A stretch of 64,000 nt of DNA from Candidatus Shapirobacteria bacterium (GCA_041661765.1 JBAZTV010000001.1:231983-295982); one strand, 5' to 3'. Counted from the first letter of the stretch, positions 1,327 to 59,416 are shown. The notes: generated from the letters alone by a model not told the origin. Program-made: numbers and translations.

Positions 1327-1377
1327 CCTCTCTGTCAAGGGAGGTGGACTCCGAAATTTCGGAGGACGGAGGGTTTT
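1327..1377 (+). repeat. Copy 1 of the two-hairpin 3'-end repeat family: CCTCTC-TGTCAA-GGGAGG, then the CTCCGAAATTTCGGAG palindrome, then GGAGGGTTTT.
   Basis: Lies directly after the dnaG stop. Matches the copies at 54795, 56283 and 59362; the second hairpin has a different sequence but is still a perfect stem. Confidence 0.6.
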
Positions 1378-1433
1378 AATACCAAAGGGGTTAGTGGTAG
1401 ATTTTAAAAGATTTTTCCTATACAATATACCGC

Positions 1434-2519
1434 ATGGTAGCCACGTTAAACATATCCAAAGTCAAGCAGGCATTACTCACTCAAGCTAAGAAGCTTCACT
1501 ATCTTACCAATGATGAGATTTTAAATCAAATCCCCGAACCGGAAAAACATATTCAAGAAGTTGATGATGTTTTTGATTATCTTTTTGAACATGGTGTTGA
1601 TGTTTTTGATAAAGTCGAATCAAAAGAAGTCATCGAAATAGAAAAAGAAAAAAATAATTCTGCTGATCTTCTCAGTATGTTATCCCAAAAAGGTAATGTT
1701 GATTCGGTCAGAATGTATTTAAAAGAAATTGGAAAAATTAATCTTTTAACCTTTGAAGAAGAAGTTGATCTAGCTCAACAAATTGAAAAAGGTTCTCTTA
1801 GTGCTCGTGAAAGTTTAATCAATGCCAATTTACGTTTAGTTGTTTCCATTGCCAAAAAATATATCGGTCGTGGTTTAACTTTTTTAGATTTAGTCCAAGA
1901 AGGAAATCAAGGATTAATGCGTGCAGTTGAAAAATTCGATTGGCACCGTGGTTTTAAATTTTCCACTTATGCCACTTGGTGGATTCGCCAAGCCATCACT
2001 CGTGCCATCGCCGATCAAGCAAAAACTATTCGTATTCCTGTTCACATGGTTGAAACCATTAATAAAGTTTACAAAGCCACTCGTGCTTTAACTCAAAGAT
2101 TAGGCCATGAACCAGAAATTGAACAAATTGCCGAAGAAGTGGGAATAACTGTTGAAAAAGTCGAAGAAATTTATCGAATTTCCCAAGATACCACCTCGCT
2201 CTCCACTCCAGTCGGTGACGATGAAGACTCATTTTTAGGGGATTTTATCGAAGACACAACTCAGATGTCTCCCTATGAAGAAACTAGTAAAGAATTATTA
2301 CGAGAATCAATCGAAGAAGTTTTAGGTAGTCTTGATGAACGCGAAACAAAAGTTTTAAGTCTTCGTTTTGGCTTAATGGGGGAAACTCCAAAAACTCTCG
2401 AAGAAGTCGGAAAAATTTTCAATGTCACCCGTGAACGTATTCGTCAAATCGAAGCCAAAGCTTTACGAAAACTCCGCCATCCATCCCGCCGTAAAAAACT
2501 CCAAGATTATTTGGAATAA
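1434..2519 (+). CDS. rpoD: RNA polymerase primary sigma factor (sigma-70 family)
   Basis: Region 2 '[17 protein letters not shown]', regions 3 and 4 ('[29 protein letters not shown]'). Gene order dnaG-rpoD is the classic macromolecular-synthesis operon. Confidence 0.9.
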
Positions 2520-3034
2520 TGAAAAAACAAAATTTTGAAGGAAAAATTAGAAATTGTAAAAAAGATCTTTGCACTTGTTCTTGTTGTGATGATGATGAAG
2601 TTCAGGAATGGATAATTGAATATTTATCTTTTCACGAAAGATTAAAAGATTTTTTAAAAGAAAAAGGGGTTGGTATTAGTTTTATTGGTGATCGAGTCTA
2701 TTTCAAAAATTGTTCAGACGGTCATCAATGCAAGTTTTTAAAATATTCCTTAAATAAAGATATTGACCCTCGTCCTATCGATTGCAAAATTTACCCTTTT
2801 GTTGTCGATTGGAAATCTATTAATTTTGATAAGAAAATAATCAAACTTTATTACTGGGACAATGAATGTCCTTTAGTCACCGAAAATAAAATATCAAATT
2901 CATTTAAAAAGAATGTAGAAAATATTTTAAAAAGAGACTTTTCTTATCTTTTTCATGGCGCTCAATTCAAAGTAAAATTTATGGATAAAATATTTCCGGA
3001 ACATAAAGCCAAGGCTGATAAACTAAAACCTTAA
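2519..3034 (+). CDS. Cys-rich protein with a CxxCxxCC-type motif ('CTCSCC'). Possibly a YkgJ/UPF0153-like zinc- or iron-chelating domain protein.
   Basis: Start overlaps the rpoD stop (TAATG). Eleven or more Cys residues including 'CKKDLCTCSCC'. The family assignment is from motif only. Confidence 0.4.
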   Translation: MKKQNFEGKIRNCKKDLCTCSCCDDDEVQEWIIEYLSFHERLKDFLKEKGVGISFIGDRVYFKNCSDGHQCKFLKYSLNKDIDPRPIDCKIYPFVVDWKSINFDKKIIKLYYWDNECPLVTENKISNSFKKNVENILKRDFSYLFHGAQFKVKFMDKIFPEHKAKADKLKP

Positions 3035-3053
3035 TTTTCAAGTACAATAAAAT

Positions 3054-3452
3054 ATGCAATATGTCCGAGTTGCCGTCCACGGCCTGATCAAAAAAAACGG
3101 CAAAATTTTAGTTACCAAACGCCCATTCGATGATGACTATATGCCTATGCTTTGGGATATTCCTGGTGGCACTATTAAATTTCAAGAAAACGCCAATGAT
3201 GCTTTAGTTAGAGAAATTAATGAAGAAACAAAATTAAAAGTAAAAATAGGAAATATTATATTTTGTCATGATTTTCCCTCTGGTCCTGAACGTCACCAAT
3301 TTCAAATGGTGTATGAGTGTGAATATGAAAGTGGAGAAGTAATTCTTAACCCCGACGATCACTATGAATTTAAGTGGGTTTCACTAGATGAAATTGAACA
3401 ATTACCCAAAATTGCCCTTTTAGAAGAACTATTTAAATTCCTCAAAAAGTAA
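3054..3452 (+). CDS. NUDIX hydrolase
   Basis: Nudix box 'GGTIKFQENANDALVREINEETKLKV' (Gx5Ex7REUxEExGU pattern). Confidence 0.8.
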   Translation: MQYVRVAVHGLIKKNGKILVTKRPFDDDYMPMLWDIPGGTIKFQENANDALVREINEETKLKVKIGNIIFCHDFPSGPERHQFQMVYECEYESGEVILNPDDHYEFKWVSLDEIEQLPKIALLEELFKFLKK

Positions 3453-3473
3453 AAATCAGAATCTTGACAAACT

Positions 3474-3791
3474 TTGCCAATATATGACATAATATATGTT
3501 ATGACCACAGTGAACATCTCTATTACCGATAATCAGGCAAAATTTATCGACAAACTCGCCAAAGATTACAATTTTGACAACCGCAGTGAATTAATTCGTA
3601 GTTTCATTCGTCTCTTTCAATTTCGCCCACAATTAATTGACGAAGTTATCGGTTTTCCATTCTCGCTTCCAGACACCAACAGTCGTTCAAAAGTTGTTGA
3701 TAGCTTCAAAGAAACCGGTAAATATTCACCAGAGTTCTTAAAAGATTTAGAAAATGGTTTAAAAAATAGTAAATTTTTTAGCCAAAAATGA
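3474..3791 (+). CDS. ParD-like ribbon-helix-helix antitoxin. The real start is possibly the ATG at 3501.
   Basis: 'ISITDNQAKFIDKLAKDYNFDNRSELIRSFIRL' matches the ParD/RHH pattern. The stop overlaps the start of the next ORF (ATGA). Confidence 0.55.
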   Translation: MPIYDIIYVMTTVNISITDNQAKFIDKLAKDYNFDNRSELIRSFIRLFQFRPQLIDEVIGFPFSLPDTNSRSKVVDSFKETGKYSPEFLKDLENGLKNSKFFSQK

Positions 3792-4036
3792 ATCTAGATT
3801 TTTTAAATAAAGATCAAAAGAAATATTTATCTAGTCATAATCTAATTCATAAATTTGAAAAACAATACGATTTATTTTTAAAAAATCCACATCATCCAAG
3901 TTTAAATTTGGAAATATTAGAACCAAAAAACCGAGGTATCCATAGTTTTAGAATTGACAGAAAATATCGAGTTATTTTTATTTTTAATCCAGATCAAAAT
4001 ATTGAAATACTATTTATAACCAATCATTACAAGTAA
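3788..4036 (+). CDS. ParE/RelE-family type II toxin
   Basis: 82 aa. 'IHSFRIDRKYRVIFIFNPDQNIEILFITNHYK' is typical of RelE/ParE toxins. Overlaps the upstream antitoxin gene by 4 nt. Confidence 0.6.
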   Translation: MNLDFLNKDQKKYLSSHNLIHKFEKQYDLFLKNPHHPSLNLEILEPKNRGIHSFRIDRKYRVIFIFNPDQNIEILFITNHYK

Positions 4037-4038
4037 TT

Positions 4039-4578
4039 TTATTTAAAGTCTTCAAAAACAATCGCCTCGGCATTATTTACTTCAACTTTATCAGCAGTTT
4101 TTCCCGTAATTTCAGCCACCATTATTTTAATTGGTTCTTCATGACTTACCACTAAAACGGTTGAATTTTCATCTTCCAACTTCAAATCCTCCAAAAAAAG
4201 AGTCACTCTTTTAACCAAATGGATTAAACTTTCCACTCCCATTTCTTTATTTACTGCATTGTCTTCATTTAAACTTTCTTTATTAATTGAATCAATTTCT
4301 ACTCCAGTATATTCACCATAATCTCTTTCTTCAATTAATTTTGACATATAAATTGGCACATCAATTGGATCTTCATCTAAAACATGTTCCAAAGTTTCTC
4401 GACACCTAGTCAAAGGTGAACAAAAAATCATATCAATTTTATATTTTTCTTTTAATTCTTTTCCTACCTCTTTAGATTGCTCAATTCCCTTAGCTGTTAA
4501 TTTTCCACAATCTTGTCCTGCCAAAATATTATTAATATTATCTTCAGTTTCTCCATGTCTTAGTAAAATTAATTTCAT
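4039..4578 (-). CDS. Histidine phosphatase family protein (phosphoglycerate mutase-like)
   Basis: N-terminal 'LLRHGETEDN' RHG catalytic motif. Confidence 0.75.
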   Translation of the reverse strand: MKLILLRHGETEDNINNILAGQDCGKLTAKGIEQSKEVGKELKEKYKIDMIFCSPLTRCRETLEHVLDEDPIDVPIYMSKLIEERDYGEYTGVEIDSINKESLNEDNAVNKEMGVESLIHLVKRVTLFLEDLKLEDENSTVLVVSHEEPIKIMVAEITGKTADKVEVNNAEAIVFEDFK

Positions 4579-4673
4579 GACAAATATTATACCGTAATTT
4601 ATTTATTTTCTAAATTAGAATCAAATGTTATAATAATGTTCACCATTCCGAAACTTTAGTGAAGGATGGACAT

Positions 4674-4745
4674 TCGCCCTTAGCTCAACGGTAGAGCAAT
4701 CCGCTGTTAACGGAAAGGTTTTTGGTTCGAATCCAGAAGGGCGAG
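4674..4745 (+). tRNA. tRNA-Asn (anticodon GTT)
   Basis: Hand-folded cloverleaf: 7-bp acceptor TCGCCCT/AGGGCGA, D arm GCTC-AACGGTA-GAGC, anticodon loop CTGTTAA, T arm TTTGG-TTCGAAT-CCAGA, discriminator G. No CCA is encoded. Confidence 0.75.
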
Positions 4746-4784
4746 CGTAATATCACACATATATTTCACATGTATAATTAGATT

Positions 4785-5285
4785 ATGAATTATGACCCAA
4801 TCAATTTTTCTAAAAATTTAGTCAAAGGAAGAATCGCTGAAACATTATTTGAACAGATGCTTCGTGATGCTGAATGTTTTACAATTTTATCTTTTGGTTA
4901 TGAAAACATTATTCCAGAACTTGCTCATCGCCAAGATGATATAAGAGCACAAGAAACAATGGAAATAATCAGACGAGCTCCTGATTTTGCTGTAATAAAT
5001 AATGAGACACATGATGTTTATTTAATAGAAGTTAAATATTTAATGAAACCTGCTGCTAGTACAATTCTTAAAGATGCAGAAAGAATGTTTCAATCTTGGA
5101 AACCATCTTATCTATTTTTAGCAACACCAGAAGGTTTTTATTTTGATAAGGCCAGTGACATTGTTAAAAATAATGGAATTATAAAACCGTTTTATCATCC
5201 ACAAATTTCAAAAGAATTGCAATTAAAATATACTCAACTACTAAATGAGTTTATTGTTCCAACTGAAACGACACCTAAAAACTAA
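4785..5285 (+). CDS. Hypothetical protein with a PD-(D/E)xK nuclease-like signature
   Basis: 'APDFAVINNETHDVYLIEVKY' gives a PD...ExK arrangement, with an upstream acidic residue in 'RIAETLFEQ'. Confidence 0.4.
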   Translation: MNYDPINFSKNLVKGRIAETLFEQMLRDAECFTILSFGYENIIPELAHRQDDIRAQETMEIIRRAPDFAVINNETHDVYLIEVKYLMKPAASTILKDAERMFQSWKPSYLFLATPEGFYFDKASDIVKNNGIIKPFYHPQISKELQLKYTQLLNEFIVPTETTPKN

Positions 5286-5520
5286 TATTGTGATTAGTCA
5301 AAAACTCAAAACAATTTCAAAAAGTGAAGAAGAAACAAGAGAATATTTTAAGCGAAAATATAATTGGGATATAGCAGAGGCTGATTATCAAGAAGTTTCT
5401 CAGTCCATGTATTACTTAGGTAAAGCGATTTATAGAAGTTTACAATTAGAGTACAAAAGTGACTCAGTCAATATTAAAAATAAGAAAATCATTAGGCAAG
5501 ATAGCAGAAAATTTGTCTGA
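5245..5520 (+). CDS. Hypothetical small protein. The start is uncertain; it overlaps its neighbours.
   Basis: ORF only. A possible GTG start at 5291 lies after the upstream stop. Confidence 0.25.
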   Translation: MSLLFQLKRHLKTNIVISQKLKTISKSEEETREYFKRKYNWDIAEADYQEVSQSMYYLGKAIYRSLQLEYKSDSVNIKNKKIIRQDSRKFV

Positions 5521-5656
5521 CGATGAAGTTTTAAAATTAGATACCAAAATGGAGATTTTTGCCAATCTTATTTTAGATAAAATATTATCCTTAACGCCGG
5601 AAGAGAGAAAAATACTTAATGATAAAATTAGAAAAGGAAATTCAAGTTATATTTAA
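5459..5656 (+). CDS. Hypothetical small protein
   Basis: ORF only. Overlaps the previous ORF by about 60 nt. Confidence 0.2.
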   Translation: MTQSILKIRKSLGKIAENLSDDEVLKLDTKMEIFANLILDKILSLTPEERKILNDKIRKGNSSYI

Positions 5657-5674
5657 AATTAAATTAAAAATAGA

Positions 5675-6487
5675 ATGACATCAAATAACGATGAATTATC
5701 AAAAACTTTAAGATGGAGAGTAAAATCTCTTAAAATTTTTGTTAAAGCATTCAAACGATATATCGAAGTCGCATCACCTTTTGTTACTGAGGATAATACT
5801 GAGCTGAATAAGGAATATAAAGATATACAAAGATTTCTAAGCTATTTTGAAGAGCAAATAGAAAATGGTGATGGTGATTATGATTTTGTTGATTTAATAT
5901 TTTTAGGTAAAAGTTGGGGTAAAATTTATGATCTGATGTGGAAATATAATGGTTGGAAAAAACAACTATTTGATGAAAGAGAAAGAATAATCGTTATTAA
6001 AGCAGCTCTGGAAGGTGACAAAAAACATCTTGAAGAAATAAATGAAATACTAAATAATGATTGTTGGTCATTATTTAACAGATGTCCAATTTTAATTGAT
6101 AGTTTTTATAATGTTATTCATCCGAAGACAGATGATCCAATTATTCAACAAGTCTTTAATATTGAAACTTTAAATGGTGTGCTTGCTGGTACAAATAATG
6201 GAATAATTACTCAAAACAATGAAAGTAAAAAAGTATTAAAAGCTATACAAGAAATAACAAATATTCTTGAAAAAGAATATCTTGAAAATAAAAATACACC
6301 GGAGATACTTTCAAATTTACAAGAGATTCAAGGTGAATTACTTAAACCATTTCCTGATAATTTAAAAATGAAAAAAGCTGCTGATGGACTACAGACGGTT
6401 GCAAATATTACTCAGATTGGTTCATTCGCGGTTGCAATCGCACCCCATTTGCAGACAATACAACAATTTATCAGTAAATTTATTTAA
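5675..6487 (+). CDS. Hypothetical protein (270 aa), island cargo
   Basis: Long ORF with no recognisable motif. Its stop overlaps the stop of the convergent recombinase gene. Confidence 0.45.
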   Translation: MTSNNDELSKTLRWRVKSLKIFVKAFKRYIEVASPFVTEDNTELNKEYKDIQRFLSYFEEQIENGDGDYDFVDLIFLGKSWGKIYDLMWKYNGWKKQLFDERERIIVIKAALEGDKKHLEEINEILNNDCWSLFNRCPILIDSFYNVIHPKTDDPIIQQVFNIETLNGVLAGTNNGIITQNNESKKVLKAIQEITNILEKEYLENKNTPEILSNLQEIQGELLKPFPDNLKMKKAADGLQTVANITQIGSFAVAIAPHLQTIQQFISKFI

Positions 6488-8205: not shown

Positions 8206-8270
8206 AATTGTATATTTATCCTATCTTTAGCCTAAATATATTATATCGGATACCCAAATATAATCCAAGG

Positions 8271-34130: not shown

Positions 34131-34383
34131 ATCAGTTCTTTTAAAATGGCGTTATAAACAAGAGCGTGTGGTCCGCCCACTGACGGAATACGAGGAAAAG
34201 GGTCAATCGATTTATCTGCGGAAACCCTTAGGTTGTGATTGTCAGCCTTAATATTTTCTTTAAACCTTTGAAGTAATTCAAAAATTAAAGGGAAAATAGA
34301 ACAATTGCCATTTCCACAAAAGAATACATTTGCCGGATTTTTAGGTATTTTTATTTGTTTAAAAATCTTGCATATATAAAAAC

Positions 34384-36141
34384 ATGTGTGGAATATTTGG
34401 CTATAAAGGCAGCTCTGACGCCGCCAATATTGTTTTATCTGGTTTAAAAAAACTTGATTATAGAGGTTACGATTCTTGGGGTATTGCTCTTAATTTTGGT
34501 CATAAAATTTTTCTAAAAAAAGACGTTGGTAAAATCAGTGATATTAAAAAAATTGATTTACCTTTTGGAAATATTTCTGTTGGTCACACTCGCTGGGCAA
34601 CCACCGGTTCAGTTTCTCAAATTAATGCCCATCCTCATTTTTCCACCGACAAATCTTTTGCTCTAGTCCAAAACGGCATTGTTGAAAATTTTGAGGAATT
34701 GAAATCCGATTTAAAAAAGAGAGGCTACCAATTTAAATCCGAAACCGACACTGAAGTTATTGTTCGTTTGATCGAAAGTCAAAAAAATAAAAATTTAATT
34801 AATGCCATCAGATCGGCTTTTTTACAGTTAAAAGGCCGCAATACTATTGCCGTTCTCGATTCCAAAAATAATCAAATTATTGCCCTCAGAAACGGCTCGC
34901 CTTTAATTATTGGCACCAATCAAAATGATTTTTATTTATCTTCCGACACTTTATCTCTCTCTGGTTTTGCCACTAAATACATCGATTTAGATAATTTTGA
35001 CATGGTTGTTATCAATAATAAAATTAATTTTTTTAATTCAAGAACCGGTCATAAAATTAATAAAAAATTAAAGGATTTAGAAATTTCTAATTTTTCTTCC
35101 GAGTTGGGTAGCTACGATCATTACATGATTAAAGAAATTATGGAAAGCCCAAAAGTTATTCAAAATATTGTTAATTCCGATCCAAAAAATGTTTTTAGAT
35201 TAGCCCAAGCCATTAAAAAATCCAAAACTGTTTATTTAATTGGTTCCGGCACTGCCGGTAATGCTGCCGCTCAAACTGCTTATTATCTTAAAAAGTATGC
35301 CCAAGTTTCGGCAATTAGTCTTGTTGGTTCTGATGCAAAAGATTATTACCAATTATTTTCTTCAAAAGACTTAATCATTGCTCCATCTCAAAGCGGGGAG
35401 ACCAGTGATGTTTTAGAAGTTTTGGAATTTGCCAAAACTAAAGGAGTAAAAATTGCTTCGTTGGTTAATATGCCCGGTTCTTCCATGTCCCGTCTTTCCA
35501 ATTTTAAATTTAGTTCCAATTCAGGTCCCGAAATTTGCGTCATGTCGACTAAAGTTTTTGTCGCCCAAATTGTTTGGGGCTATTTAATCGCCAAAACTGT
35601 CGCCGGCGATTATTACCAGGCCATCAAAGAGCTCCAAAAATTATCCGAATCAGTCCAAAAATATTTAACCGATCCCAAAAATATTAATCAAATTAAAAAA
35701 ACAGCCGACCTTCTTTTAAATACTCACGACATTTTTTTATTAGGCAAAGGTCAAAATTTTCAAATAGCCAAAGAGGGAATGATTAAATTAATTGAAGGCA
35801 CTTATAAACATGCCCACGCTATTCCCGCTGGCGATTTAAAACATTATGCAATCACCTTAATTGAAAAAAATGTTTTTGTTTTAGTTTTGCTTTCACCAGA
35901 TGATTTATCAGATTTAAACAGCGCCATTAACGAAATTCGTAGTCGGGGTGGCACCATCATTGGTCTTTTTAATCAAAAGCAAAATAATTTTGATTATTGT
36001 TTACAAACTCCAAAATTAGCCGAAACTGGCGCTATTTTTAATATTATTCCGCTTCAGTTATTAGCCTATTATCTAGCTGTTAAATTGGGGAATAATGTCG
36101 ACAAGCCCCGTAATATTGCCAAATCGGTCACCGTAAATTAA
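34384..36141 (+). CDS. glmS: Glutamine--fructose-6-phosphate aminotransferase
   Basis: 'MCGIFGY' N-terminal nucleophile Cys, two SIS domains, C-terminal 'KSVTVN'. Confidence 0.9.
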   Translation: MCGIFGYKGSSDAANIVLSGLKKLDYRGYDSWGIALNFGHKIFLKKDVGKISDIKKIDLPFGNISVGHTRWATTGSVSQINAHPHFSTDKSFALVQNGIVENFEELKSDLKKRGYQFKSETDTEVIVRLIESQKNKNLINAIRSAFLQLKGRNTIAVLDSKNNQIIALRNGSPLIIGTNQNDFYLSSDTLSLSGFATKYIDLDNFDMVVINNKINFFNSRTGHKINKKLKDLEISNFSSELGSYDHYMIKEIMESPKVIQNIVNSDPKNVFRLAQAIKKSKTVYLIGSGTAGNAAAQTAYYLKKYAQVSAISLVGSDAKDYYQLFSSKDLIIAPSQSGETSDVLEVLEFAKTKGVKIASLVNMPGSSMSRLSNFKFSSNSGPEICVMSTKVFVAQIVWGYLIAKTVAGDYYQAIKELQKLSESVQKYLTDPKNINQIKKTADLLLNTHDIFLLGKGQNFQIAKEGMIKLIEGTYKHAHAIPAGDLKHYAITLIEKNVFVLVLLSPDDLSDLNSAINEIRSRGGTIIGLFNQKQNNFDYCLQTPKLAETGAIFNIIPLQLLAYYLAVKLGNNVDKPRNIAKSVTVN

Positions 36142-50303: not shown

Positions 50304-50340
50304 AAAAATTTTTTACCAAAACAAAAATTTTAAATTTCCA

Positions 50341-50370
50341 TGTAGAGACGTAGCGCGCTACGTCTCTACA
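50341..50370. repeat. Perfect 30-bp palindrome TGTAGAGACGTAGCGCGCTACGTCTCTACA (REP-like), copy A, intergenic
   Basis: Self-complementary as read. Located 56 bp upstream of the RAYT-like gene. Confidence 0.8.
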
Positions 50371-50425
50371 TAACAACAAAAAAACGTTCCTACAAATATA
50401 AATTTATATTTCTATTATTTAAATA

Positions 50426-51019
50426 ATGGTCGATAATCCAACTAAGTTTGCCGATAAATTTAAATTAAAATCTTCTCGTCTCCAAAACTGGAACTATTCA
50501 ACTCCAGGATATTACTTCATCACCATCTGTACCCACAACCACAATAATTTTTTTGGAAAAATTATTAACAACAAGATGGAATTGTCAAAACGTGGTGAAA
50601 TTACTAAATCTGAATTATTAAAAACATTTGAAATCAGAAAAAATATTAAATTACATGAATGGGTAATTATGCCAAATCATGTGCATGTTTTAATGGAAAT
50701 TGAAAAACAAAATTATCAACACAATAAATGTAGAGACGTAGCGCGCTACGTCTCTACAAAACTAAACAACATCTCTACAGAAGAAAATAATAAAAATTTT
50801 TCAAAAATTTCACCCAAACCAAATTCAATTTCATCAATAATACGTTCATTCAAATCAGCCGTTACCCATCAAATAAATCCCAAAACAATATTTTTTGCTT
50901 GGCAACCCCGTTTCCACGATCAAATCATTAAAGATGAAAAAAAATTATTAATGATCAAAAATTATATAATCAATAATCCTATTAATTGGCAAAAAGATAA
51001 ATTTTATAATTTAAAATAA
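50426..51019 (+). CDS. REP-associated tyrosine transposase (RAYT; IS200/TnpA-like HuH) with an in-frame insertion
   Basis: 'GYYFITICTHNHNNFF', HuH 'MPNHVHVLM', C-terminal 'WQPRFHDQII...IKNYIINNPINW' (YafM-like). About 40 extra residues lie between the HuH and Tyr regions and include the palindrome-encoded 'CRDVARYVST'. Confidence 0.7.
   Translation: MVDNPTKFADKFKLKSSRLQNWNYSTPGYYFITICTHNHNNFFGKIINNKMELSKRGEITKSELLKTFEIRKNIKLHEWVIMPNHVHVLMEIEKQNYQHNKCRDVARYVSTKLNNISTEENNKNFSKISPKPNSISSIIRSFKSAVTHQINPKTIFFAWQPRFHDQIIKDEKKLLMIKNYIINNPINWQKDKFYNLK
50729..50758. repeat. Perfect 30-bp palindrome, copy B, identical to 50341-50370 and located inside the RAYT reading frame
   Basis: Identical 30-mer, 388 bp downstream of copy A. 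Confidence 0.8.
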
Positions 51020-51022
51020 AAC

Positions 51023-51502: not shown

Positions 51503-51503
51503 A

Positions 51504-51740: not shown

Positions 51741-51775
51741 GAATTTCTTAAGAATTTAATTTTTTAATATGGGTT

Positions 51776-54049
51776 ATGGTTAACCCTATCTTTGTTCAAT
51801 TTTTTTTCATCATTTTTATAAATATTGTTCACCCAATTTATGCAGAAGAACCAACCCCTATTCTAGAATCAACAACCACTCCAGAACCAACTATTGAAAT
51901 TACTCCATATACTTCTCCGATTATAACCATAACCCAGCCCCCAACCCCAATAACCACTGAAACACCAGGAATTAATCCCTTTTTAGAAACCGATAAATCA
52001 GATTATTCTCCGACCGAAACAGTAATTATTTCAGGCCATAATTTTTTATCGAACACTCAATATTTTTTGAATATTACTTCAGACAATTTAAATATTATTG
52101 AACCAATTACCTCAAATGAATCAGGATCTTTTACTTATAACTATGAATTAGACGGTATTTACCGTACAACTTATAAAGTTGAAATTAAAGATTTAAACAA
52201 TAATATTATTTCTAATATCATTTTTACTGATAGGCGAGATGTTATTTCGGCAACCATTAATGGTGTTAATTCGGTCAATGTTTTTCCAAAAGAGTCAATT
52301 ATTGTCACCGTCGGTGTCAATACTGATTGGTGGTGGTTTTGGAATAATGATTGGAGATCAACCTCTTGGCGATTTGGAAATTCTGGAAATTGGAATTGTG
52401 TCGACACTCCCGACCATCTTAAATCAGGCGATTATTTTGAATCATTTGAAATTGATTCTCCTTCAACCTTAGGAAAATATCAATTACAAATTAGAGTTTA
52501 TGGACTTAAAAATTGTAACCCTCTATTAAAGAGTGATATTTTTACTCTAAAAAATGCCATCACTGTTTTAACTCCCGACACCACTCCTCCCATAATTACC
52601 ATTGATCCCTATAATACTACTCCAACTAATCAAGATATTACTATTACCGCTTCAACCAACGAAGGCATTATTAATACCACCACTCACACTTTTACAGAAA
52701 ATAGTAGTTTTACTTTTACTGCCACTGATGATGCTGGAAATATTTCTAATCAAACCGTAAATATTAATAATATTGATAAAACCACTCCTTCTACTCCTTC
52801 ATTAATTTCGCCACTTGATGGCATTTCATTAAAAGGGGATTCGATTATCAATGATTGGTCGAGCATCAGCGATGCTAATAAATATTTTTATGAAAGTTAT
52901 TCCGATCAAGAAACTAGTCAATTAAAATGTAGTCAAATTATTTTTGCTCCAGATCATTCTAATACTATAAATACTGCCACAGACGATACCTTCTGGTGGA
53001 GAGTTAGAGCAATTGACAATGCTGAAAATCAAAGTCAATGGAGCGAATTAAGAAAATTAATTATCGATAATACTCCACCAGTGATTACTGTCAATCATTA
53101 CAATACTAATCCAACCAATCAAAATATTACCGTCACTGCTTCCACTAATGAAGGTGAATTAAATGAGAAATCCCATATCTTTGAATCAAATGGGTCTTTT
53201 GTTTTTATCGCTATTGACGATGCTGGAAATAGCTCTAGTAAAACAATAACTATTACAAATATTGATAAAACCAGCCCTATTCTTAGTTTTTCGATTAACC
53301 CAAATAATCCTGATACTGATAATGGTTGGTATAAAACTCAACCTCAAATTAATTTGTCATTTACAGACAATAATTTCACCATCATTCAATATCAATGGGA
53401 TACTCCCACTGGAGAATGGATTAATTATATCGATTTTATAAAACCTAATTTTGAAGGTATTCACACCCTTTATTTTCGTGCCATTGATTTAGCTGGAAAT
53501 CAAACCACTGGTTTTAAAGAAATTAAGTGGGATCAAACAGATCCGTATTTGGCTCCTCAAAATATTATCGCCGATCCGAATCCCACCAGTAGTAACACTT
53601 CTAAAATTAAATGGAAAACTGCAAAAGATAATATTGGTATTGATAAATATGAAATCCAATGGATTTTAAATGATATTAATAATCCGCTCTTTTATTCAAA
53701 AACCGTTGGAGTAAACACTACTGAAGTTGATATTGATAAATTAATTAAAGGTCGCTGGACAGTTAAAATTATAGCCTTTGATTTTAGCAGTCGAGTCAAA
53801 GATAATTCTATCGATTTATATATTACTGATTCCGTTTCACCTACTCCGATTCCAACTTTTAAATTAAATAAAACTATCTCTATTGTCACTCCTAAAATTA
53901 CTCCTAATCAAATCGCTCAAGATTTTTCACCAGAAATAAAAGGTGTTAGCAGTACTAATACTAACAACTCTATTCCATGGCGACTAATCCTAAGTTTAGG
54001 TATCATTATTTTATTTATCGGTGGTCGCAGACTTTTTTCCAAAAAATAA
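51776..54049 (+). CDS. Large surface protein: signal peptide, Thr/Pro-rich region, repeated Ig/FN3-like modules, C-terminal transmembrane anchor
   Basis: Duplicated ~70-aa modules 'DPYNTTPTNQDITITASTNEG...ATDDAGNISNQTVNINNIDKTTPS' and 'NHYNTNPTNQNITVTASTNEG...AIDDAGNSSSKTITITNIDKTSP'. The last ~25 aa are hydrophobic. Confidence 0.6.
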   Translation: MVNPIFVQFFFIIFINIVHPIYAEEPTPILESTTTPEPTIEITPYTSPIITITQPPTPITTETPGINPFLETDKSDYSPTETVIISGHNFLSNTQYFLNITSDNLNIIEPITSNESGSFTYNYELDGIYRTTYKVEIKDLNNNIISNIIFTDRRDVISATINGVNSVNVFPKESIIVTVGVNTDWWWFWNNDWRSTSWRFGNSGNWNCVDTPDHLKSGDYFESFEIDSPSTLGKYQLQIRVYGLKNCNPLLKSDIFTLKNAITVLTPDTTPPIITIDPYNTTPTNQDITITASTNEGIINTTTHTFTENSSFTFTATDDAGNISNQTVNINNIDKTTPSTPSLISPLDGISLKGDSIINDWSSISDANKYFYESYSDQETSQLKCSQIIFAPDHSNTINTATDDTFWWRVRAIDNAENQSQWSELRKLIIDNTPPVITVNHYNTNPTNQNITVTASTNEGELNEKSHIFESNGSFVFIAIDDAGNSSSKTITITNIDKTSPILSFSINPNNPDTDNGWYKTQPQINLSFTDNNFTIIQYQWDTPTGEWINYIDFIKPNFEGIHTLYFRAIDLAGNQTTGFKEIKWDQTDPYLAPQNIIADPNPTSSNTSKIKWKTAKDNIGIDKYEIQWILNDINNPLFYSKTVGVNTTEVDIDKLIKGRWTVKIIAFDFSSRVKDNSIDLYITDSVSPTPIPTFKLNKTISIVTPKITPNQIAQDFSPEIKGVSSTNTNNSIPWRLILSLGIIILFIGGRRLFSKK

Positions 54050-54065
54050 TACAATATAACGTATT

Positions 54066-54794
54066 ATGATTATTAATAAAATTCATCTTCAAATTCTAGA
54101 AGACATTGACCATTTAATCGTCTCTAAAAAAACTGATACTCAATGGGTTAAAAAATATCTCGGCACCGATAAAATTTTTCATGGTTTTTCCACTGGTCAA
54201 ATGGTCGATTTAGCAAAAAAGATAGTTAAAGAAAATAATTTGACCGACCCTCAAATAATTAGATTATCTGATTCTCTTTATAAAAATGGAACTACCTATA
54301 CTGAAATCGCCATCGCTGCCATCATTTTAGGTCAATCAAAAACTCTTTTAAAAAGTTTTGATCCAAATCATCTTGATTTATGGTTAAATTATACCTGTGG
54401 TTGGGCAGAAAATGATGTACTTTGCCAATCAAATTTTACTGATGAAATTATTTTGAATAATTGGTCTGCTTGGGAAAGAATTTTAAAACAATTTAATAAA
54501 GATAAAAACATTAATAAACGCAGGGCCAGTTTAGTTTTATTAACTAAATCTCTCCGTCAATCAGATGATTCACGTTTATCAAAAATTGCTTTTGAAAATA
54601 TCGAAAAATTAAAATCCGAAAAAGAAATATTAATTACTAAAGCCGTTTCTTGGTTGCTTCGTTCTTTAGTTAAATTTCACCAAAAAGAGGTTTTAGATTA
54701 TCTCGAAAAAAATAAAAACACTCTTCCTAAAATTGCTTACCGAGAAGCGTTTACTAAAGCCACCACCGGCCGTAAATACAACAAAAAGAAATAG
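54066..54794 (+). CDS. Possible DNA alkylation repair (AlkD-like HEAT-repeat) protein
   Basis: Helical repeat composition and 'WLNYTCGWAENDVLCQ'. Weak assignment. Confidence 0.35.
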   Translation: MIINKIHLQILEDIDHLIVSKKTDTQWVKKYLGTDKIFHGFSTGQMVDLAKKIVKENNLTDPQIIRLSDSLYKNGTTYTEIAIAAIILGQSKTLLKSFDPNHLDLWLNYTCGWAENDVLCQSNFTDEIILNNWSAWERILKQFNKDKNINKRRASLVLLTKSLRQSDDSRLSKIAFENIEKLKSEKEILITKAVSWLLRSLVKFHQKEVLDYLEKNKNTLPKIAYREAFTKATTGRKYNKKK

Positions 54795-54834
54795 CCTCCC
54801 TGTCAAGGGAGGTGCCCGAAGGGCGGAGGGTTTT
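54795..54834 (+). repeat. Copy 2 of the two-hairpin repeat: CCTCCC-TGTCAA-GGGAGG, TGCCC-GAA-GGGC, GGAGGGTTTT
   Basis: 40-mer identical to 56283-56322. Confidence 0.7.
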
Positions 54835-54845
54835 AAAACCAAAAA

Positions 54846-54868
54846 CCCCTCCTTTTTTAAGGGAGGGG
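54846..54868. terminator. Hairpin CCCCTCC-TTTTTTAAG-GGAGGGG between convergent genes, a likely bidirectional terminator
   Basis: Stem with A/T-rich flanks. Lies between the + strand gene ending at 54794 and the - strand helicase gene ending at 54888. Confidence 0.5.
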
Positions 54869-54887
54869 GTAGGGGTAGGTTTTAGAT

Positions 54888-56174
54888 TTAATATCTATCT
54901 TCCACAAAAGTCAAAGCATAACCTTGATGATCAGCTCGTCCAGTTCTACCAATTCGGTGAACATAATCTTCGTAATTATTTGGTTTATCGTAGTTAATTA
55001 CATGAGTAATATCAGCCACATCCAAACCTCTAGCTGCAACATCAGTAGCAATCAAAATATTAATTTCGTTTTCTTTAAATTTTCTTAAAGTTGTTTGTCG
55101 TTGATATTGGGCTTTATTTCCATGAAGTGAACCAACTTTAAATCCTTGCTGACCCAAACCTACAGATAGTTTTTCAACTACTAATTTAGTTCCACCAAAA
55201 ACTAACACTTTTTTAAATTCTTCTTGATGTAGTAATTTACTAAGCATAGTTTCTTTATCTTCTCGTCTTACTCTTACAATGTTTTGTTCAACATTTTTAG
55301 AGCTTTCTTGAGTTTTAACCGAAATTTCAGCCGGATTAGTTAGAAAAGAATCAATTAAGGGTTGGATTTTTCTATTAACTGTTGCTGAGAAAAATAAAGT
55401 TTGATGAGGTGTGGGAATTTGGCTTACAATTTCTTTAATATCTTGCACAAAACCCATATCCAACATTCGATCAACTTCATCTAAAACAATAGTATCGAAT
55501 TTATCAAAACGAATCACCCTTCTTTTGGCTAAATCTTTAATTCTTCCTGGAGTTCCCACAATAATATGTGGATCTCTCTTAATATCCAATATTTGTTCTC
55601 GAATATAAGCTCCACCAATGGCCAAAGCCACAAAAACTCTCATACCAAAAGTAAAAGATCTAATTTCTTGTTTTGTTTGTTGAGCTAATTCTCGAGTCGG
55701 TGACAAAATAAGAATTCTTTTATTTGGATTTTCTAAAATTTTATTAATTAAAGGTAAAGAAAAAGCTGCAGTTTTACCTGTTCCAGTGTTAGAAATACCC
55801 AAAACATCTCGGCCATCCAAAATATGGGGGATTATTTCGTCTTGAATTGGAGTTGGTTTTAAATACCCTTTATTCTTAATATTATCCATTAAAATTGGGT
55901 TTAAATCAAAATCTTTAAAATTATTTTTAACTTTAGCATCTTCAATTTTTACCATTGGCTCAGCTTTTTGGATAAACATAGACACGTCAATTCGACTTTC
56001 AAAAATTCGATTTCTATTACCACCGTTTCTACTACCGACAAATCTATTTCCACCATTTCCGGCATTACTTCTGCCACCAAATCTGGTTCGACCACTATTT
56101 GGTCTTTGTTGAGTTTTACCACCAAAATTATTGGTGAATTTATTCTGATACATAATTTTTGTTGACCTAAACAC
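54888..56174 (-). CDS. DEAD-box ATP-dependent RNA helicase with an RG-rich N-terminal extension
   Basis: Q motif 'PTPIQ', 'GTGKTAAF', 'DEVD', 'SAT', 'HRIGRTGR'. N-terminal Gly/Arg/Asn-rich ~60 aa. Confidence 0.9.
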   Translation of the reverse strand: MFRSTKIMYQNKFTNNFGGKTQQRPNSGRTRFGGRSNAGNGGNRFVGSRNGGNRNRIFESRIDVSMFIQKAEPMVKIEDAKVKNNFKDFDLNPILMDNIKNKGYLKPTPIQDEIIPHILDGRDVLGISNTGTGKTAAFSLPLINKILENPNKRILILSPTRELAQQTKQEIRSFTFGMRVFVALAIGGAYIREQILDIKRDPHIIVGTPGRIKDLAKRRVIRFDKFDTIVLDEVDRMLDMGFVQDIKEIVSQIPTPHQTLFFSATVNRKIQPLIDSFLTNPAEISVKTQESSKNVEQNIVRVRREDKETMLSKLLHQEEFKKVLVFGGTKLVVEKLSVGLGQQGFKVGSLHGNKAQYQRQTTLRKFKENEINILIATDVAARGLDVADITHVINYDKPNNYEDYVHRIGRTGRADHQGYALTFVEDRY

Positions 56175-56282
56175 TGTTTTTTGGCCGTAACCTAGAAACT
56201 TGCGGTGCCCACAAAAAAATAATGCACCAATTTGCTCAAATCAGTCTGTAGTCTACCACATCCCCACCCAATTGCAAACAGG

Positions 56283-56322
56283 CCTCCCTGTCAAGGGAGG
56301 TGCCCGAAGGGCGGAGGGTTTT
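56283..56322 (+). repeat. Copy 3 of the two-hairpin repeat (identical 40-mer)
   Basis: Exact match to 54795-54834. Lies between the helicase start and the Nramp gene stop. Confidence 0.7.
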
Positions 56323-56323
56323 A

Positions 56324-57589
56324 TTAAAAAAACACCTGCCACAACATCACCAACACAGAAATCAACATAAATCCAAAAATTATCCATGCTACTACTTTAT
56401 TTTTCTTTTTAGTCTTAAATTTACCCACAATTCTCTCGTCGTCGCTCAGTTTAATGATAATGGCAATCAAAGGCACAGCAGCTATACCATTAATAACTGC
56501 TGAATAATAAAGCGCACTCATAATATTGATTTTAAGTAAATTCATTGCAAGTCCGACTATTGTTGACACTGCAATGATTGCATAAAACATTTTTGCTTTT
56601 TTAAATTTTTTAGATAAACCTTCTTTGAATCCAAAAGCATCAGAAATTGCATAACCAACCGATCCTGCCAAAACCGGAATCGACTGCCAACCAATTCCAA
56701 TTATTCCCACCGCAAATAAAATATAAGCAAAATTTCCCGCCAATGGTTTAAGTGCCAACGCTGCTTGTTGTGGTGTTTCTATATCAGTAATTCCATGAGC
56801 GTGCAGTGTCGCTGCTGTCGTTATAATTATTGAAAAAGTCATCAAATTGGAAAATAACATTCCAATTTTTGTGTCTCGCCCCATAGCTGTAATTTCTTTT
56901 TGTTTTACTTCTGGTTTACAATCGAAATCTTTTACCTTACCATCGGCTATTTCTTCCTCTATTTCTTCTGATGCTTGCCAAAAAAACAAATAAGGTGAAA
57001 TAGTTGTTCCTAAAAACCCGATCATTGTCATGATATATCCTAAATTGAATTCTATTTGTGGAATCAACGTACTAAATGCAATTGTTTTCCAATCTTGTTT
57101 CACCATAAAAGCCGTAATCAAATAAACCCCCAAACTTAATCCTAACCATTTTAAAACTCTTGAATATTTTTTATAAGGAATAATTATTTCCATTAAGATA
57201 ATCAGCACTCCGATAAAAATCAGCCAGCCAAAAAAATTCAATCCAAAAAGCATTTGCATTGATGCCGCCATTATTCCCAAATCAGACCCAATATTAATAG
57301 TATTAGCAACCGCCAATAATGAAACTGCCATAAATAATAATCTTTTTGAATGATATTTTTTAATTACTCCAGCTAAACCCTTGCCCGAAGTCATTCCAAT
57401 TCGTCCACACATTTCCTGAATTACCACCATTGCCGGCCATAAAAATAACGCCAACCAACTCATTTTATAGCCATATTGAGCTCCAGCAATCGAATAAGTC
57501 GCAATTCCCGACGGATCATCATCAGCCGCTCCAGTAATAAACCCCGGTCCAATTTTTTTGAAAAAGTTTCTAATTTTTGTTAATATCAC
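56324..57589 (-). CDS. mntH: Nramp-family divalent metal transporter
   Basis: 'GPGFITGAADDDPSGIATYS' Nramp signature, polytopic. Confidence 0.85.
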   Translation of the reverse strand: MILTKIRNFFKKIGPGFITGAADDDPSGIATYSIAGAQYGYKMSWLALFLWPAMVVIQEMCGRIGMTSGKGLAGVIKKYHSKRLLFMAVSLLAVANTINIGSDLGIMAASMQMLFGLNFFGWLIFIGVLIILMEIIIPYKKYSRVLKWLGLSLGVYLITAFMVKQDWKTIAFSTLIPQIEFNLGYIMTMIGFLGTTISPYLFFWQASEEIEEEIADGKVKDFDCKPEVKQKEITAMGRDTKIGMLFSNLMTFSIIITTAATLHAHGITDIETPQQAALALKPLAGNFAYILFAVGIIGIGWQSIPVLAGSVGYAISDAFGFKEGLSKKFKKAKMFYAIIAVSTIVGLAMNLLKINIMSALYYSAVINGIAAVPLIAIIIKLSDDERIVGKFKTKKKNKVVAWIIFGFMLISVLVMLWQVFF

Positions 57590-57679
57590 TTGCTAAAGAT
57601 ATCAGATCAGCTTCCCATTCATCAAGGGAGAGGGTTAGGGCGAGTGGGCTTTTATTTATATATGTAGTAAAATAGTTCC

Positions 57680-59416
57680 ATGACTCAAAATTTCTCCACC
57701 ATTAAAATTGCCGGTCCAGCTGGTTCTGGCATTAAATCCGCCGGTCAAGTTTTTTCCAAACTTCTAATCGACCATGGCTACAATTTAGTTGACTACAGTG
57801 AATATCCATCCCTAGTTCGCGGTGGTCATAACACTTATCAAATTACCTTTTCCAACGAAAAAGTTTTTGCCGCTCATTTTAATGTCGACTTATTTTTTTC
57901 AGTCTATCCAAATCATTGGCAACCACATCAATCAGAATTTACTAAATCAACTTTAGTTTTTTCTGAAGAAGATTTTTCCACCGTCAAATCGAAAGCCACG
58001 TTTATTAAATTACCTCTAAAGGAAATGGCTGACCAAGTCGGTAGTCCTTTAGTTATTAATACCCTCTGCTTGGGTATCGCTACTTATATTTATGGTCTAG
58101 ATGTCCAAAAAGCCAAAGACCTTATTTGTGAGGCCTATCAAAAATATTGCGAAATAAATTTAAATGCCTTTAATATTGCCTATTCTTACGCAGAAAAGAA
58201 TTTCTCTAAATTTCAAATTAAAATAAAAAAACCTACAAAAATTGTCAAAATGGGGTTTAACGAAGGAAACGAAGCTTCTGGTTGGGGATTTATTAAAGGT
58301 GGTGGTAGTTTTTATGCCGCTTATCCCATGACTCCAGCCACTGGTATTCTTCATTTTTTAGCCAACAAACAAACAGAATTTAAATTAACCGTCGTTCACC
58401 CCGAAGACGAAATTGCCGCCGCCAATATGGCTGCTGGCGCTGCCTTTGTTGGTGCCCGATCGGCCACTGGCACTTCTGGTGGTGGTTTTGCCCTTATGAA
58501 TGAAGCCGTCAGTTTCTGTGGCATCGCCGAAATTGGTATGGTTTATTATTTAGTTTCCCGCCCCGGTCCGGCTACCGGTCTTCCCACTTGGACTAGCCAA
58601 GGTGATCTTCTTCACGCCATTTATTCCGGCCACGGTGAATTTCCCAAAGTGGTTTTGGCTCCCGGCGATGTTAATGAATCCTTTGAATTAAGCCACATCG
58701 CTCTCGATTTAGCGGCTCAACTCCAAACCCCAATCATAGTTGTCAGTGATAAATTAATCGGTGAATCCAGCTCCAGTACCAAATATTTTCCCGACATTAA
58801 GGTAAAAATCAACAAAGGTAAAATCTTAAACGAAATTGAAGGCGATGATTTTAAAAGGTATGCTTTTACCAAAGACGGCATTTCTCCAGTTTCTCTTCCC
58901 GGAACTCCCGGAGGCGAATTTATGGCCAACAGCTACGAACATGATGAATTTGGTTTTTCCACCGAAGATGCTGTCCTTTCCGAAAAAATGTTTCAAAAGC
59001 GAATGTTAAAAACCAAAACAGCTCTTAAAATTTGTCCCAAGGCCAATTTTTTTGGTTCTAAAAAAGCCAAAAAACTAATTATCGGTTGGGGCTCTCCCAA
59101 AGGGGCCATTTTGGAAGCCTTAAAATTGATGGACAACAGAGAAGATTTTGCCTTTTTACAATTAAAAACTCTTTGGCCAATTAATCCTGAAATTCAAACT
59201 ATTATTAATGCTTTTAAAGAAACCATCGTTATTGAAAATAATGGAACTAATCAATTAGTAACCGTTCTTAAATCTCAATTTGATTTCAATCCGACCAAAA
59301 TCATTAATAAAAATGATGGCCGTCCTTTCTTTCCCGAAGAAATAATTAAATTATTAGAAAGTCGCCCTGTCAAGGGAGATGCCCGAAGGGCAGAGGGTTT
59401 AAACATTAAAAAATAA
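57680..59416 (+). CDS. korA: 2-oxoacid:ferredoxin oxidoreductase, fused gamma/alpha subunit
   Basis: N-terminal gamma-type 'IKIAGPAGSGIKSAGQ', then the alpha domain 'GNEAS...AAYPMTPAT'. Confidence 0.8.
   Translation: MTQNFSTIKIAGPAGSGIKSAGQVFSKLLIDHGYNLVDYSEYPSLVRGGHNTYQITFSNEKVFAAHFNVDLFFSVYPNHWQPHQSEFTKSTLVFSEEDFSTVKSKATFIKLPLKEMADQVGSPLVINTLCLGIATYIYGLDVQKAKDLICEAYQKYCEINLNAFNIAYSYAEKNFSKFQIKIKKPTKIVKMGFNEGNEASGWGFIKGGGSFYAAYPMTPATGILHFLANKQTEFKLTVVHPEDEIAAANMAAGAAFVGARSATGTSGGGFALMNEAVSFCGIAEIGMVYYLVSRPGPATGLPTWTSQGDLLHAIYSGHGEFPKVVLAPGDVNESFELSHIALDLAAQLQTPIIVVSDKLIGESSSSTKYFPDIKVKINKGKILNEIEGDDFKRYAFTKDGISPVSLPGTPGGEFMANSYEHDEFGFSTEDAVLSEKMFQKRMLKTKTALKICPKANFFGSKKAKKLIIGWGSPKGAILEALKLMDNREDFAFLQLKTLWPINPEIQTIINAFKETIVIENNGTNQLVTVLKSQFDFNPTKIINKNDGRPFFPEEIIKLLESRPVKGDARRAEGLNIKK
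59362..59398 (+). repeat. Copy 4 (diverged) of the two-hairpin repeat, overlapping the last codons of korA
   Basis: CGCCCTGTCAAGGGAGATGCCCGAAGGGCAGAGGGTTT. It encodes '...PVKGDARRAEGL' at the korA C-terminus. Confidence 0.55.

Follow-up and report, generated by a model that had tools for sequence, protein, structure and literature searches.

The 64,000-nt stretch of a Candidatus Shapirobacteria bacterium genome analysed here (the window, in which copy coordinates are counted from the first letter) contains four copies of a short element made of two hairpins and a 3' tail. This element forms the terminal inverted repeats of a mobile unit that encodes a nuclease of the DUF559 family. It belongs to a dispersed family whose copies vary in sequence while keeping their structure, carry a tail that mirrors one strand of the first hairpin, reside in frame within genes, are present or absent at the same site in related genomes, show a strong strand bias and diverge together with the DUF559 protein. 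We regard it as probable, with substantial reservations, that the element is a DNA-acting, non-autonomous dispersed repeat of the candidate phyla radiation (CPR, Patescibacteria), similar to the repetitive extragenic palindromes (REPs) and served by the DUF559 nuclease.

A single pattern scan (CTGTCAAGGGAGNTG-N(5-30)-GAGGGTT) over 185,579 species genomes returned 86 loci, of which four, lacking the element's 5' half, are chance matches. The remaining loci supply 99 further copies from public genomes, found in small, A+T-rich metagenome-assembled genomes (MAGs) labelled as Candidatus Shapirobacteria, Peribacteria, Absconditabacterales, Saccharibacteria and, in some cases, 'uncultured Gammaproteobacteria'. 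The family occurs in MAGs assigned to several CPR lineages and is not specific to one genus, as an initial annotation of the window had proposed. The Gammaproteobacteria label is probably wrong, because the MAGs concerned (SRP192927 series, about 32% G+C) encode proteins 80–87% identical to those of Candidatus Shapirobacteria MAGs. Carriage by phages was also considered and rejected; a scan of viral contigs gave two chance matches only, both without the 5' half.

The first hairpin (P1) consists of a pyrimidine strand, a GTCA loop closed by a T-A pair and a purine strand, with a conserved block CTGTCAAG and a conserved G-T wobble. The second hairpin (P2) is G+C-rich and varies in sequence and length, always remaining a stem, and its short forms have a C-GNA-G loop. 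The 3' tail, RGAGGGTTT, mirrors the purine strand of P1; the T run starts 6–7 nt past P2, after RGAGGG. The consensus, aaaG-YC-K-CC..RGAGGGTTT, carries no terminal GTAG or CGTC tag. At one locus (L053, 4119–4188) the P1 loop holds an extra 20-nt G+C-rich insert (CCTCCCTG[CCTGCCCGCCCTCTGGCTGG]GTCAAGGGAGG) that is still read through in an open reading frame (ORF), so the P1 loop is able to take insertions too.

The initial annotation had noted that P2 changes in sequence while staying a stem, and the larger sample bears this out: the 100 unique copies, the window's four included, contain 66 different P2 sequences of 11–24 nt, each still a stem. The compensatory changes described there are far stronger than could be seen from the window. 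In a 57-sequence alignment of copies in other genomes, 88.6% of cells pair (77.1% in shuffles) and 101 cells are changed on both sides, as against 35 in shuffles, with none of 500 shuffles reaching 101. In P2, six of the seven pairs change on both sides, and one P1 pair alternates between C-G (42 sequences) and U-A (13). The outer CCTCC/GGAGG pairing that had been proposed fares differently; it shows no compensatory change, and two of its five pairs are unpaired in 18/57 and 32/57 sequences. A covariance model built from this alignment finds 161 copies across the 86 loci.

An inverted pair of elements flanks a unit of about 0.51 kb, which encodes an endonuclease of about 130–150 residues with the Vsr-like PD-(D/E)XK fold. 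The ORF of about 148 codons between the inverted copies matches Pfam DUF559 (PF04480, 4.8e-28), and its product is homologous to PDB 3hrl ('endonuclease-like protein', 2.9e-22) and, more weakly, to 3r3p, the catalytic domain of the homing endonuclease I-Bth0305I (4.6e-4). A published survey puts DUF559 in the same group as Vsr (PMC3424549). The first set of loci contains four complete DUF559 genes, and all four have one layout, in which an antisense copy ends about 20 nt upstream of the gene and a sense copy lies at its stop, fused to the last codons (..ERKASLSREV..GRRVL, then the stop). When the four loci are aligned, homology starts at the junction of TTT with AAAACCCTCCG and stops at the junction of CGGAGGGTTTT with AAA. 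These are the outer ends of the two copies, and the sequences beyond are unrelated.

The same limits are seen in a wider comparison of 12 loci (9 distinct after merging three identical pairs), where the 0.5-kb unit is 77–94% identical in every pair while the 700-nt flanks are dissimilar, except in one syntenic pair and one pair sharing a single flank. The unit is found in at least 7 unrelated contexts, and therefore it has moved and the repeats are its exact ends. In the comparison of L089/L090 with L091 the left flank is common (76% over 680 nt) and the right flank is not, which suggests a rearrangement with its breakpoint at the DUF559 unit. Gene-less doublets also exist (L066, L069); the spacer of L066 resembles the DUF559 unit marginally more than shuffles do, which is suggestive of a relic of the gene.

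The left copy appears to serve the gene as well. On the opposite strand its P1 loop reads CTTGACAG, which holds a perfect -35 hexamer, TTGACA, and a promoter is predicted before the DUF559 gene (TTGACA, a 17-nt spacer and AATAAT; 11/12 matches to the sigma-70 consensus; L054 5721–5749). TTGAc/a is kept in the loops of other A+T-rich DUF559 subfamilies, and a -35 role could explain the conservation of the loop. Since the conserved loop holds TTGACA, every solo copy carries an outward-facing -35 box, which could create promoters in A+T-rich DNA.

The association was also approached from the protein side. Metagenome contigs were searched with the DUF559 protein, and the covariance model was run on the 80 loci returned. 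All 8/8 loci at 70% protein identity or more show the element pair at 57–74 bits, many loci at 40–59% identity show it at 18–45 bits, and at one locus of 37% identity, whose contig has 73% G+C, the pair scores 15 bits. A model-free scan gives a flanking inverted repeat with z > 8 in 44/77 loci, including contigs of 63–73% G+C. The flanking repeats diverge as DUF559 itself does, over a range of protein identity from 95% to 35%. One 15.5-kb contig holds two DUF559 genes of different subfamilies (L087 and L121, 95% and 57% identical to the query), and a MAG rich in copies of the main family has a DUF559 gene of 54% identity with its own weakly scoring repeat (L077 7630–8000); several nuclease/repeat pairs thus coexist in one genome.

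The tail GGAGGG(TTT) is not complementary to either P1 strand; it mirrors the P1 purine strand, (A)GGGAGG. The mirror relation also holds in the flanks of distant DUF559 subfamilies that have other sequences, an A of the purine strand corresponding to A or T in the tail:

L143: P1 purine strand GGGAGAGG, tail GGAGAGGG
L116: P1 purine strand GGGAGAA, tail AAGAGGG
L098 (downstream copy): P1 purine strand GGGAGA, tail AGAGGG
L146: P1 purine strand GGAGGGGG, tail GGGGGTGG
L165 (downstream copy): P1 purine strand TGGAGAGGGG, tail GGGGTGAGGT

In 102 non-redundant flank copies the mirrored purine strand fits the tail better than the direct strand in 56, equally well in 40 and worse in 6, and full-length matches number 38 for the mirror and 9 for the direct strand. 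The mean fraction matched is 0.86 for the mirror, 0.77 for the direct strand, 0.72 for a permuted strand and 0.58 for the 5' flank. In the main family the two P1 strands and the tail change together: alignment columns 6, 23 and 49 together read C-G·G in 71 copies, T-A·A in 22 and something else in 7. As read from the sequences, these linked triples are the pairing rules of an antiparallel purine-motif triple helix.

The blocks stand in the order found in intrastrand DNA triplexes of the class II purine motif (G·G-C, A·A-T, T·A-T), with P2 in place of the short second loop. Motifs with this layout in E. coli and other bacteria go by the names BoxC, PIT and TMECO (Hoyne and Maher 2000; Holder et al. 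2015). BoxC repeats, rediscovered as PIT elements and then as TMECO, are class II motifs of this kind (Holder et al. 2015, PMC4666352), with the TMECO layout CCCTCNCCC-N3-6-GGGNGAGGG-N3-GGGNGAGGG. In vitro TMECO folds into a stable triplex, and evidence cited in the same paper indicates that RNA cannot form triplexes of the purine motif (PMC4666352). The search of Holder et al. covered loops of 1–6 nt only (PMC4666352); the CPR main family, in which the second loop is TG, a hairpin of 9–22 nt and C, lies outside this range and would escape that search. The relatives without a second hairpin (54846–54880 of the window, L096, L098, L116 and others) do have the short-loop feature. When the window is scanned for triplex motifs, the matches are copies 2 and 3 and 54846–54878; 20 shuffled windows give 0–1 motifs. 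The folding tools used model Watson-Crick and wobble pairs only; from the block order and the linked triples we infer that the folded form of the element is a triplex. A G-quadruplex was considered for the G runs and rejected, as tails such as AGAGGG and AAGAGGG give two G runs only; for TMECO it has been excluded (Holder et al., PMC4666352).

With ORFs of at least 100 codons taken into account, 133 placed copies divide into 49 intergenic, 46 sense and 38 antisense copies, so that 84 (63%) lie in ORFs, many of them more than 50 codons from both ORF ends. The position at gene 3' ends ascribed to the element holds for copies in the window and does not hold for the family. Since about 85% of the sampled sequence lies in ORFs, copies are just mildly depleted in coding DNA. 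Sense copies are read as SLPVKGG..AEGF, ASLSREV..GRRVL or PPCQGRC..GGGF and antisense copies as KTLRPAGTSLDREA and KPSALRAPPLTGRL, and a peptide of the type PVKGGARRAEGF is expected from translated copies. Five of the six frames are used; the sixth, which has a TGA inside TTGACA, never is. The host proteins include tRNA-dihydrouridine synthase (Dus), DNA ligase (LigA) and a membrane glycosyltransferase-like protein.

Orthologues of 66–87% amino-acid identity include both filled and empty alleles. DNA alignments of filled and empty sites in ORFs give net differences of 45, 36, 33, 39, 48 and 42 nt, all multiples of three, and one 72-nt insertion is bounded precisely by the TAA stop of one gene and the ATG start of the following gene. 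That five of the six frames stay open and that the net length is a multiple of three would let copies survive in genes. The flanks of the element are often TTT/AAA, itself palindromic. At one place in an orthologous gene, two genomes have copies with different P2 sequences, 6 nt apart (L033 6752–6800 and L016 723–774); a third genome (L086, about 1536–1590) is without a copy there and has ..ACCGCCGAATTTTTTT.., which resembles both element ends, so that the site could be an insertion hot spot or carry an excision footprint. A Shine-Dalgarno role for the GGAGG tail was also considered and dropped; an ATG often follows by 5–12 nt, but the distances vary and most copies are in ORFs. The recurrence of the peptide PVKGG..AEGF in many proteins, and its retention in orthologous Dus proteins, might indicate that the repeat is kept as a useful protein module. 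This is barely credible: the use of five frames and both orientations already contradicts it, 37% of copies are intergenic, and it is the DNA structure that is conserved, the compensatory changes altering the peptide.

Of the pairs of copies within loci, 133 are oriented alike and 22 oppositely. With the elements masked, the strand of negative GC skew carries the G-rich + form in 134/154 copies and 72/79 loci; the same preference is seen whether copies are sense (37:2), antisense (39:3) or intergenic (58:15). When the two effects are separated, the coding strand contributes about +0.11 and the element strand about -0.15. In the window, all four copies and both relatives described below are on the + strand, which has negative skew. 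This points to an element tied to replication-type asymmetry, either through a single-strand mechanism or through selection against folding on an exposed template. The C-GNA-G motif is a very stable DNA mini-hairpin. The short loops of P2 are nearly always of this type and its purine-purine mismatches outnumber C-T mismatches by 40 to 2, so the + strand is favoured as the folded strand.

We further infer an action on single-stranded DNA. In this scheme the DUF559 nuclease would act at replication by recognising a single strand folded into a hairpin with a third strand, and would spread or maintain the solo copies in trans, as the REP-associated tyrosine transposases (RAYTs) are thought to do for REP and REPIN sequences.

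Two other explanations bear on the role of the enzyme. The element may be a structural DNA motif kept by the host and not mobilised by DUF559, with DUF559 acting as a repair or processing nuclease for triplexes, hairpins or mismatches and the flanking motifs autoregulating its gene. DUF559 is Vsr-like, and Vsr is a mismatch-repair nickase; P1 contains its G-T wobble, and half of the copies have a G facing A, a feature shared by the TMECO type 'A mm'. Orthologous copies are retained in different species, those in the Dus gene being one case, and the strand bias could be selection against a triplex on the exposed template. We nevertheless consider this explanation unlikely. A unit with exact repeat ends in so many unrelated contexts at high identity, solo copies gained and lost among close relatives even within essential genes, and identical copies at different loci are the marks of a spreading element and not of a placed signal.

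Alternatively, the repeat could be moved by another enzyme, such as an IS200-like Y1 transposase or a RAYT, with DUF559 as a passenger between two copies. A strand-biased orientation is typical of single-strand transposition by Y1 (HUH) enzymes, and the window itself encodes a Y1_Tnp protein (50426–51019). That gene, however, has its own, different palindromes tagged with GTAG, whereas the triplex-type element is without a GTAG or CGTC tag. The divergence of the flanking repeats with DUF559, from 95% to 35% identity and up to 73% G+C, is also unlike that of a random passenger. This second alternative therefore appears quite improbable, and a repeat served by DUF559 is preferred to both.

In the window, the elements and their relatives are as follows:

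1326–1377, + strand: copy 1, 61.3 bits with the covariance model; P1 at 1326–1345 (pyrimidine strand CCTCTCT, loop GTCA, purine strand AGGGAGG), a long P2, GGACTCCGAAATTTCGGAGGAC, at 1346–1367 and the mirror tail, GGAGGGTTTT, at 1368–1377
54794–54834, + strand: copy 2, 66.3 bits; P1 at 54794–54813, P2, GCCCGAAGGGC, with a GAA loop at 54814–54824 and the tail, GGAGGGTTTT, at 54825–54834
54846–54880, + strand: relative without the second hairpin, CCCCTCC-TTTTTTAA-GGGAGGGG-GTAGGGGTAGG-TTTT
56282–56322, + strand: copy 3, 62.7 bits
57611–57657, + strand: the proposed weak fifth copy, a degenerate hairpin followed by GGGAGAGGG-TTA-GGGCGAGTGGG
57680–59416, + strand: host gene of copy 4, a 2-oxoacid:ferredoxin oxidoreductase subunit with POR_N and POR domains
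59361–59400, + strand: copy 4, of the GTCGCC / GAGAT / CAGAGGG subtype, 63.5 bits; P1 at 59361–59380, P2 at 59381–59391 and the tail, AGAGGGTTT, at 59392–59400

The four copies with their two-hairpin structure are as initially annotated. The sequence CCTCNCTGTCAAGGGAG (up to 3 mismatches) and the core CTGTCAAGGGAG (up to 1 mismatch) each have four matches in the window, where 0.1 are expected and 0/100 shuffles reach four. The model built from copies in other genomes finds exactly these four, at 61–66 bits (E about 1e-18 to 1e-20), the next best match having 10 bits. The G+C content of the elements is about 55–60%, that of the window 31%. With both RNA and DNA energy parameters each copy folds as two adjacent hairpins with the 3' tail unpaired. 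Because the next model match is so low, 57611–57657, which does not score with the model, is not counted as a member of the family and is instead a relative without a second hairpin; its folding is no better than that of shuffles (z = 0.13), and its G blocks resemble the G-stems of E. coli TMECO type A (GGGAGAGGG-TTA-GGGTGAGGG). In the relative at 54846–54880 the G-rich tail follows P1 through a 3-nt link, giving a 7-bp stem with 6/7 triads, and the sequence is of the type seen in the flanks of the DUF559 subfamilies L096, L098 and L099.

The neighbouring genes are as had been described, by ORF and domain matches. Copy 1 begins directly after the TAA stop of a DnaG-like ORF (258–1325; Toprim and DnaB-binding domains), and the first base of copy 2 overlaps the TAG stop of a DNA-alkylation-repair ORF (54066–54794). 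Copy 3 is identical to copy 2 over 41 nt at a different locus and lies between two minus-strand genes, a DEAD-box helicase (54888–56174) and Nramp (56324–57589), and is thus antisense to both. Copy 4 lies within the last codons of its host gene and reads as ..SRPVKGDARRAEGLNIKK before the stop; the 18 C-terminal residues of the protein come from copy 4 and the bases just 3' of it.

The positions of copies 1 and 2 directly after stop codons on the + strand, together with the T run that follows the element and the good folding of both hairpins as RNA, are what an RNA-level element would show, be it an intrinsic terminator, a stabiliser of mRNA 3' ends or a small structured RNA, as the initial annotation had in part suggested. 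The right copy at the 3' end of the DUF559 gene may incidentally end or stabilise the transcript. As an account of the family this is very unlikely, since 63% of copies are in ORFs and translated, 38 are antisense to their host gene, and copy 3 is antisense to both neighbours. The orientation tracks GC skew and not genes, the T run stands apart from P2, the outer stem, which would place the T run nearer to a hairpin, is without covariation and often unpaired, and a conserved mirror tail would be pointless in a terminator while it fits a motif that forms a triplex in DNA only. There is no Rfam match at the elements either: a search of the complete window at gathering thresholds yields just glmS and one tRNA, and 54700–59500 at E ≤ 1 gives none. 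A likeness to self-cleaving ribozymes (twister and similar) was likewise rejected, as it finds no support in Rfam.

The closest structural parallel to the CPR element is BoxC/TMECO. Both consist of a pyrimidine strand, a loop, a purine strand, a link and a mirrored purine strand, and both are G+C-rich and occur in many dispersed copies and in inverted pairs. TMECO type 'A mm', the commonest in E. coli MG1655, also has a G opposite A in its hairpin, like P1. TMECO has 9-nt stems and a 3-nt second loop, whereas the CPR element has stems of 6–7 nt and a variable hairpin of 13–26 nt as the second loop; triplex formation has been demonstrated in vitro for TMECO, the CPR element being known from its sequence layout. 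Known in E. coli from the 1990s on, these repeats are tied to genome instability, with a mobility function "never found" (PMC4666352). There are 23 TMECO in E. coli MG1655 and 3610 in 262 proteobacterial genomes; they are intergenic, without strand bias, sometimes in inverted pairs and with no associated mobility gene (PMC4666352). In the literature searched, nothing connects BoxC, TMECO or another dispersed repeat with DUF559 or ycjD, and no such repeats are described in CPR.

E. coli K-12 has a single DUF559 gene, ycjD, whose stop codon lies within a degenerate pyrimidine stem. A canonical TMECO of type A stands about 180 nt downstream, oriented like the right-hand copies of CPR. Between the degenerate motif and the canonical TMECO is a duplicated fragment of the ycjD 3' end (..METVLENIRQGLNRP..; L169, NC_000913.3 1351040–1351830), and upstream of ycjD is a hairpin with a 16-bp stem, CACCTCATTCTGACAA...TTGTCAGAATGAGGTG. 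The gene is found at one fixed locus in about 62% of complete E. coli genomes; in those without it, homology on the fabI side resumes about 40 nt past the TMECO. As ycjD is at one fixed locus, E. coli is only partly useful as a second example.

Similarity to REPs, as proposed for the window copies, proves close. Like REP/REPIN sequences with their RAYTs, the CPR elements are short, structured repeats dispersed in many copies, with a small enzyme gene between inverted copies (PMC3116915, PMC3337134, PMC3733652), co-divergence of repeat and enzyme, several pairs per genome, doublets and long vertical persistence. The likeness ends at the enzyme, a Y1 HUH transposase in RAYTs and a Vsr-like PD-(D/E)XK nuclease here, and at the GTAG or CGTC tag at one end of REPs (PMC3733652), which the CPR element does not have. 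REPs are extragenic, whereas the CPR elements are mostly in genes, and only the latter have a mirror-repeat third strand.

Three further systems share some of these features. Rickettsia palindromic elements (RPEs) are palindromic inserts that stand in frame in the coding genes of small genomes and are translated with the host protein, as are the CPR elements. RPEs differ in being 100–150 bp long, in belonging to Alphaproteobacteria, in their unrelated sequence and in having no known cognate enzyme or triplex layout. [quoted passage not shown] The GC clusters and double-hairpin elements of fungal mitochondria are G+C-rich hairpins in an A+T-rich genome, found also in coding regions and with compensatory change; unlike the CPR element they are organellar and have no mirror tail and no known DUF559 partner.

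Several points weigh against a repeat served by DUF559. There is no DUF559 gene within the 64-kb window, so that a partner enzyme encoded by this genome is putative. The filled/empty alignments contain no clean target-site duplication, and at several filled sites 9–19 host bases are replaced at the junctions. We know of no PD-(D/E)XK nuclease that moves DNA alone. Because the copies are kin, their covariation and mirror counts cannot be taken as independent events, and two lineages of the repeat could account for the three-way covariation. Loci of the first set were picked for containing the element, a bias that the protein-first search corrects only in part. The predicted triplex has only 6–7 triads joined through a connecting hairpin of 13–26 nt, and in half of the copies a G faces the invariant A of P1. 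TMECO is strictly intergenic, unbiased and without a mobility gene, while the CPR element is mostly in ORFs and biased, with DUF559 between copies; the differences in location and bias count here. The assignment of the lagging-strand template is also contradictory: the usual convention on GC skew disagrees with a weak bias in gene orientation, by which 58% of coding bases run in the direction of the + form. The absence of a DUF559 gene from the window, the lack of a target-site duplication and the non-independence of the counts keep our assessment of the overall explanation at no more than probable.

The window contains other features of note. A separate, classical REP/RAYT-like pair occupies 50340–51019: ORF 50426–51019 matches an IS200-like Y1 transposase (PF01797, 1.1e-6), a perfect 32-nt palindrome, ATGTAGAGACGTAGCGCGCTACGTCTCTACAT, with GTAG near its 5' end lies 55 nt upstream (50340–50371), and a second copy of the palindrome is in frame within the ORF (50728–50759). 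A glmS ribozyme/riboswitch (34152–34308, 71 bits) is upstream of ORF 34384–36141, and a tRNA-Asn is at 4674–4746. The large ORF 51776–54049 contains an internal 91-nt repeat at 52699–53278, 76% identical with a spacing of 489 nt, which probably represents a repeated protein domain.

DUF559 is, to our knowledge, a large protein family without a known role. A unit whose protein and repeats co-diverge, from CPR to G+C-rich contigs, offers one testable explanation for BoxC/TMECO and DUF559 alike, and the repeats that flank DUF559 genes may explain the origin of such repeats, including E. coli BoxC. More tentatively, and with rather more doubt than confidence, we suggest that intrastrand-triplex repeats (BoxC/PIT/TMECO and relatives) throughout bacteria have their missing partner enzymes in the DUF559 nucleases, E. 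coli YcjD included. If so, this would be a partnership of repeat and enzyme parallel to REP-RAYT, built on the PD-(D/E)XK fold and a DNA triple helix, in which the nuclease reads a hairpin with a reverse-Hoogsteen third strand and copies or maintains the repeats. The strong, replication-type strand bias provides a handle for studying non-B DNA in vivo. For the organisms themselves, a selfish or semi-selfish repeat adds loops of 11–16 residues to many housekeeping proteins, among them Dus, LigA, a 2-oxoacid oxidoreductase subunit and membrane proteins, which is relevant to annotation, to alignments and to the reading of unusual insertions in CPR proteins; the DUF559/triplex-repeat system, if it works as proposed, would routinely remodel protein-coding genes in CPR bacteria.

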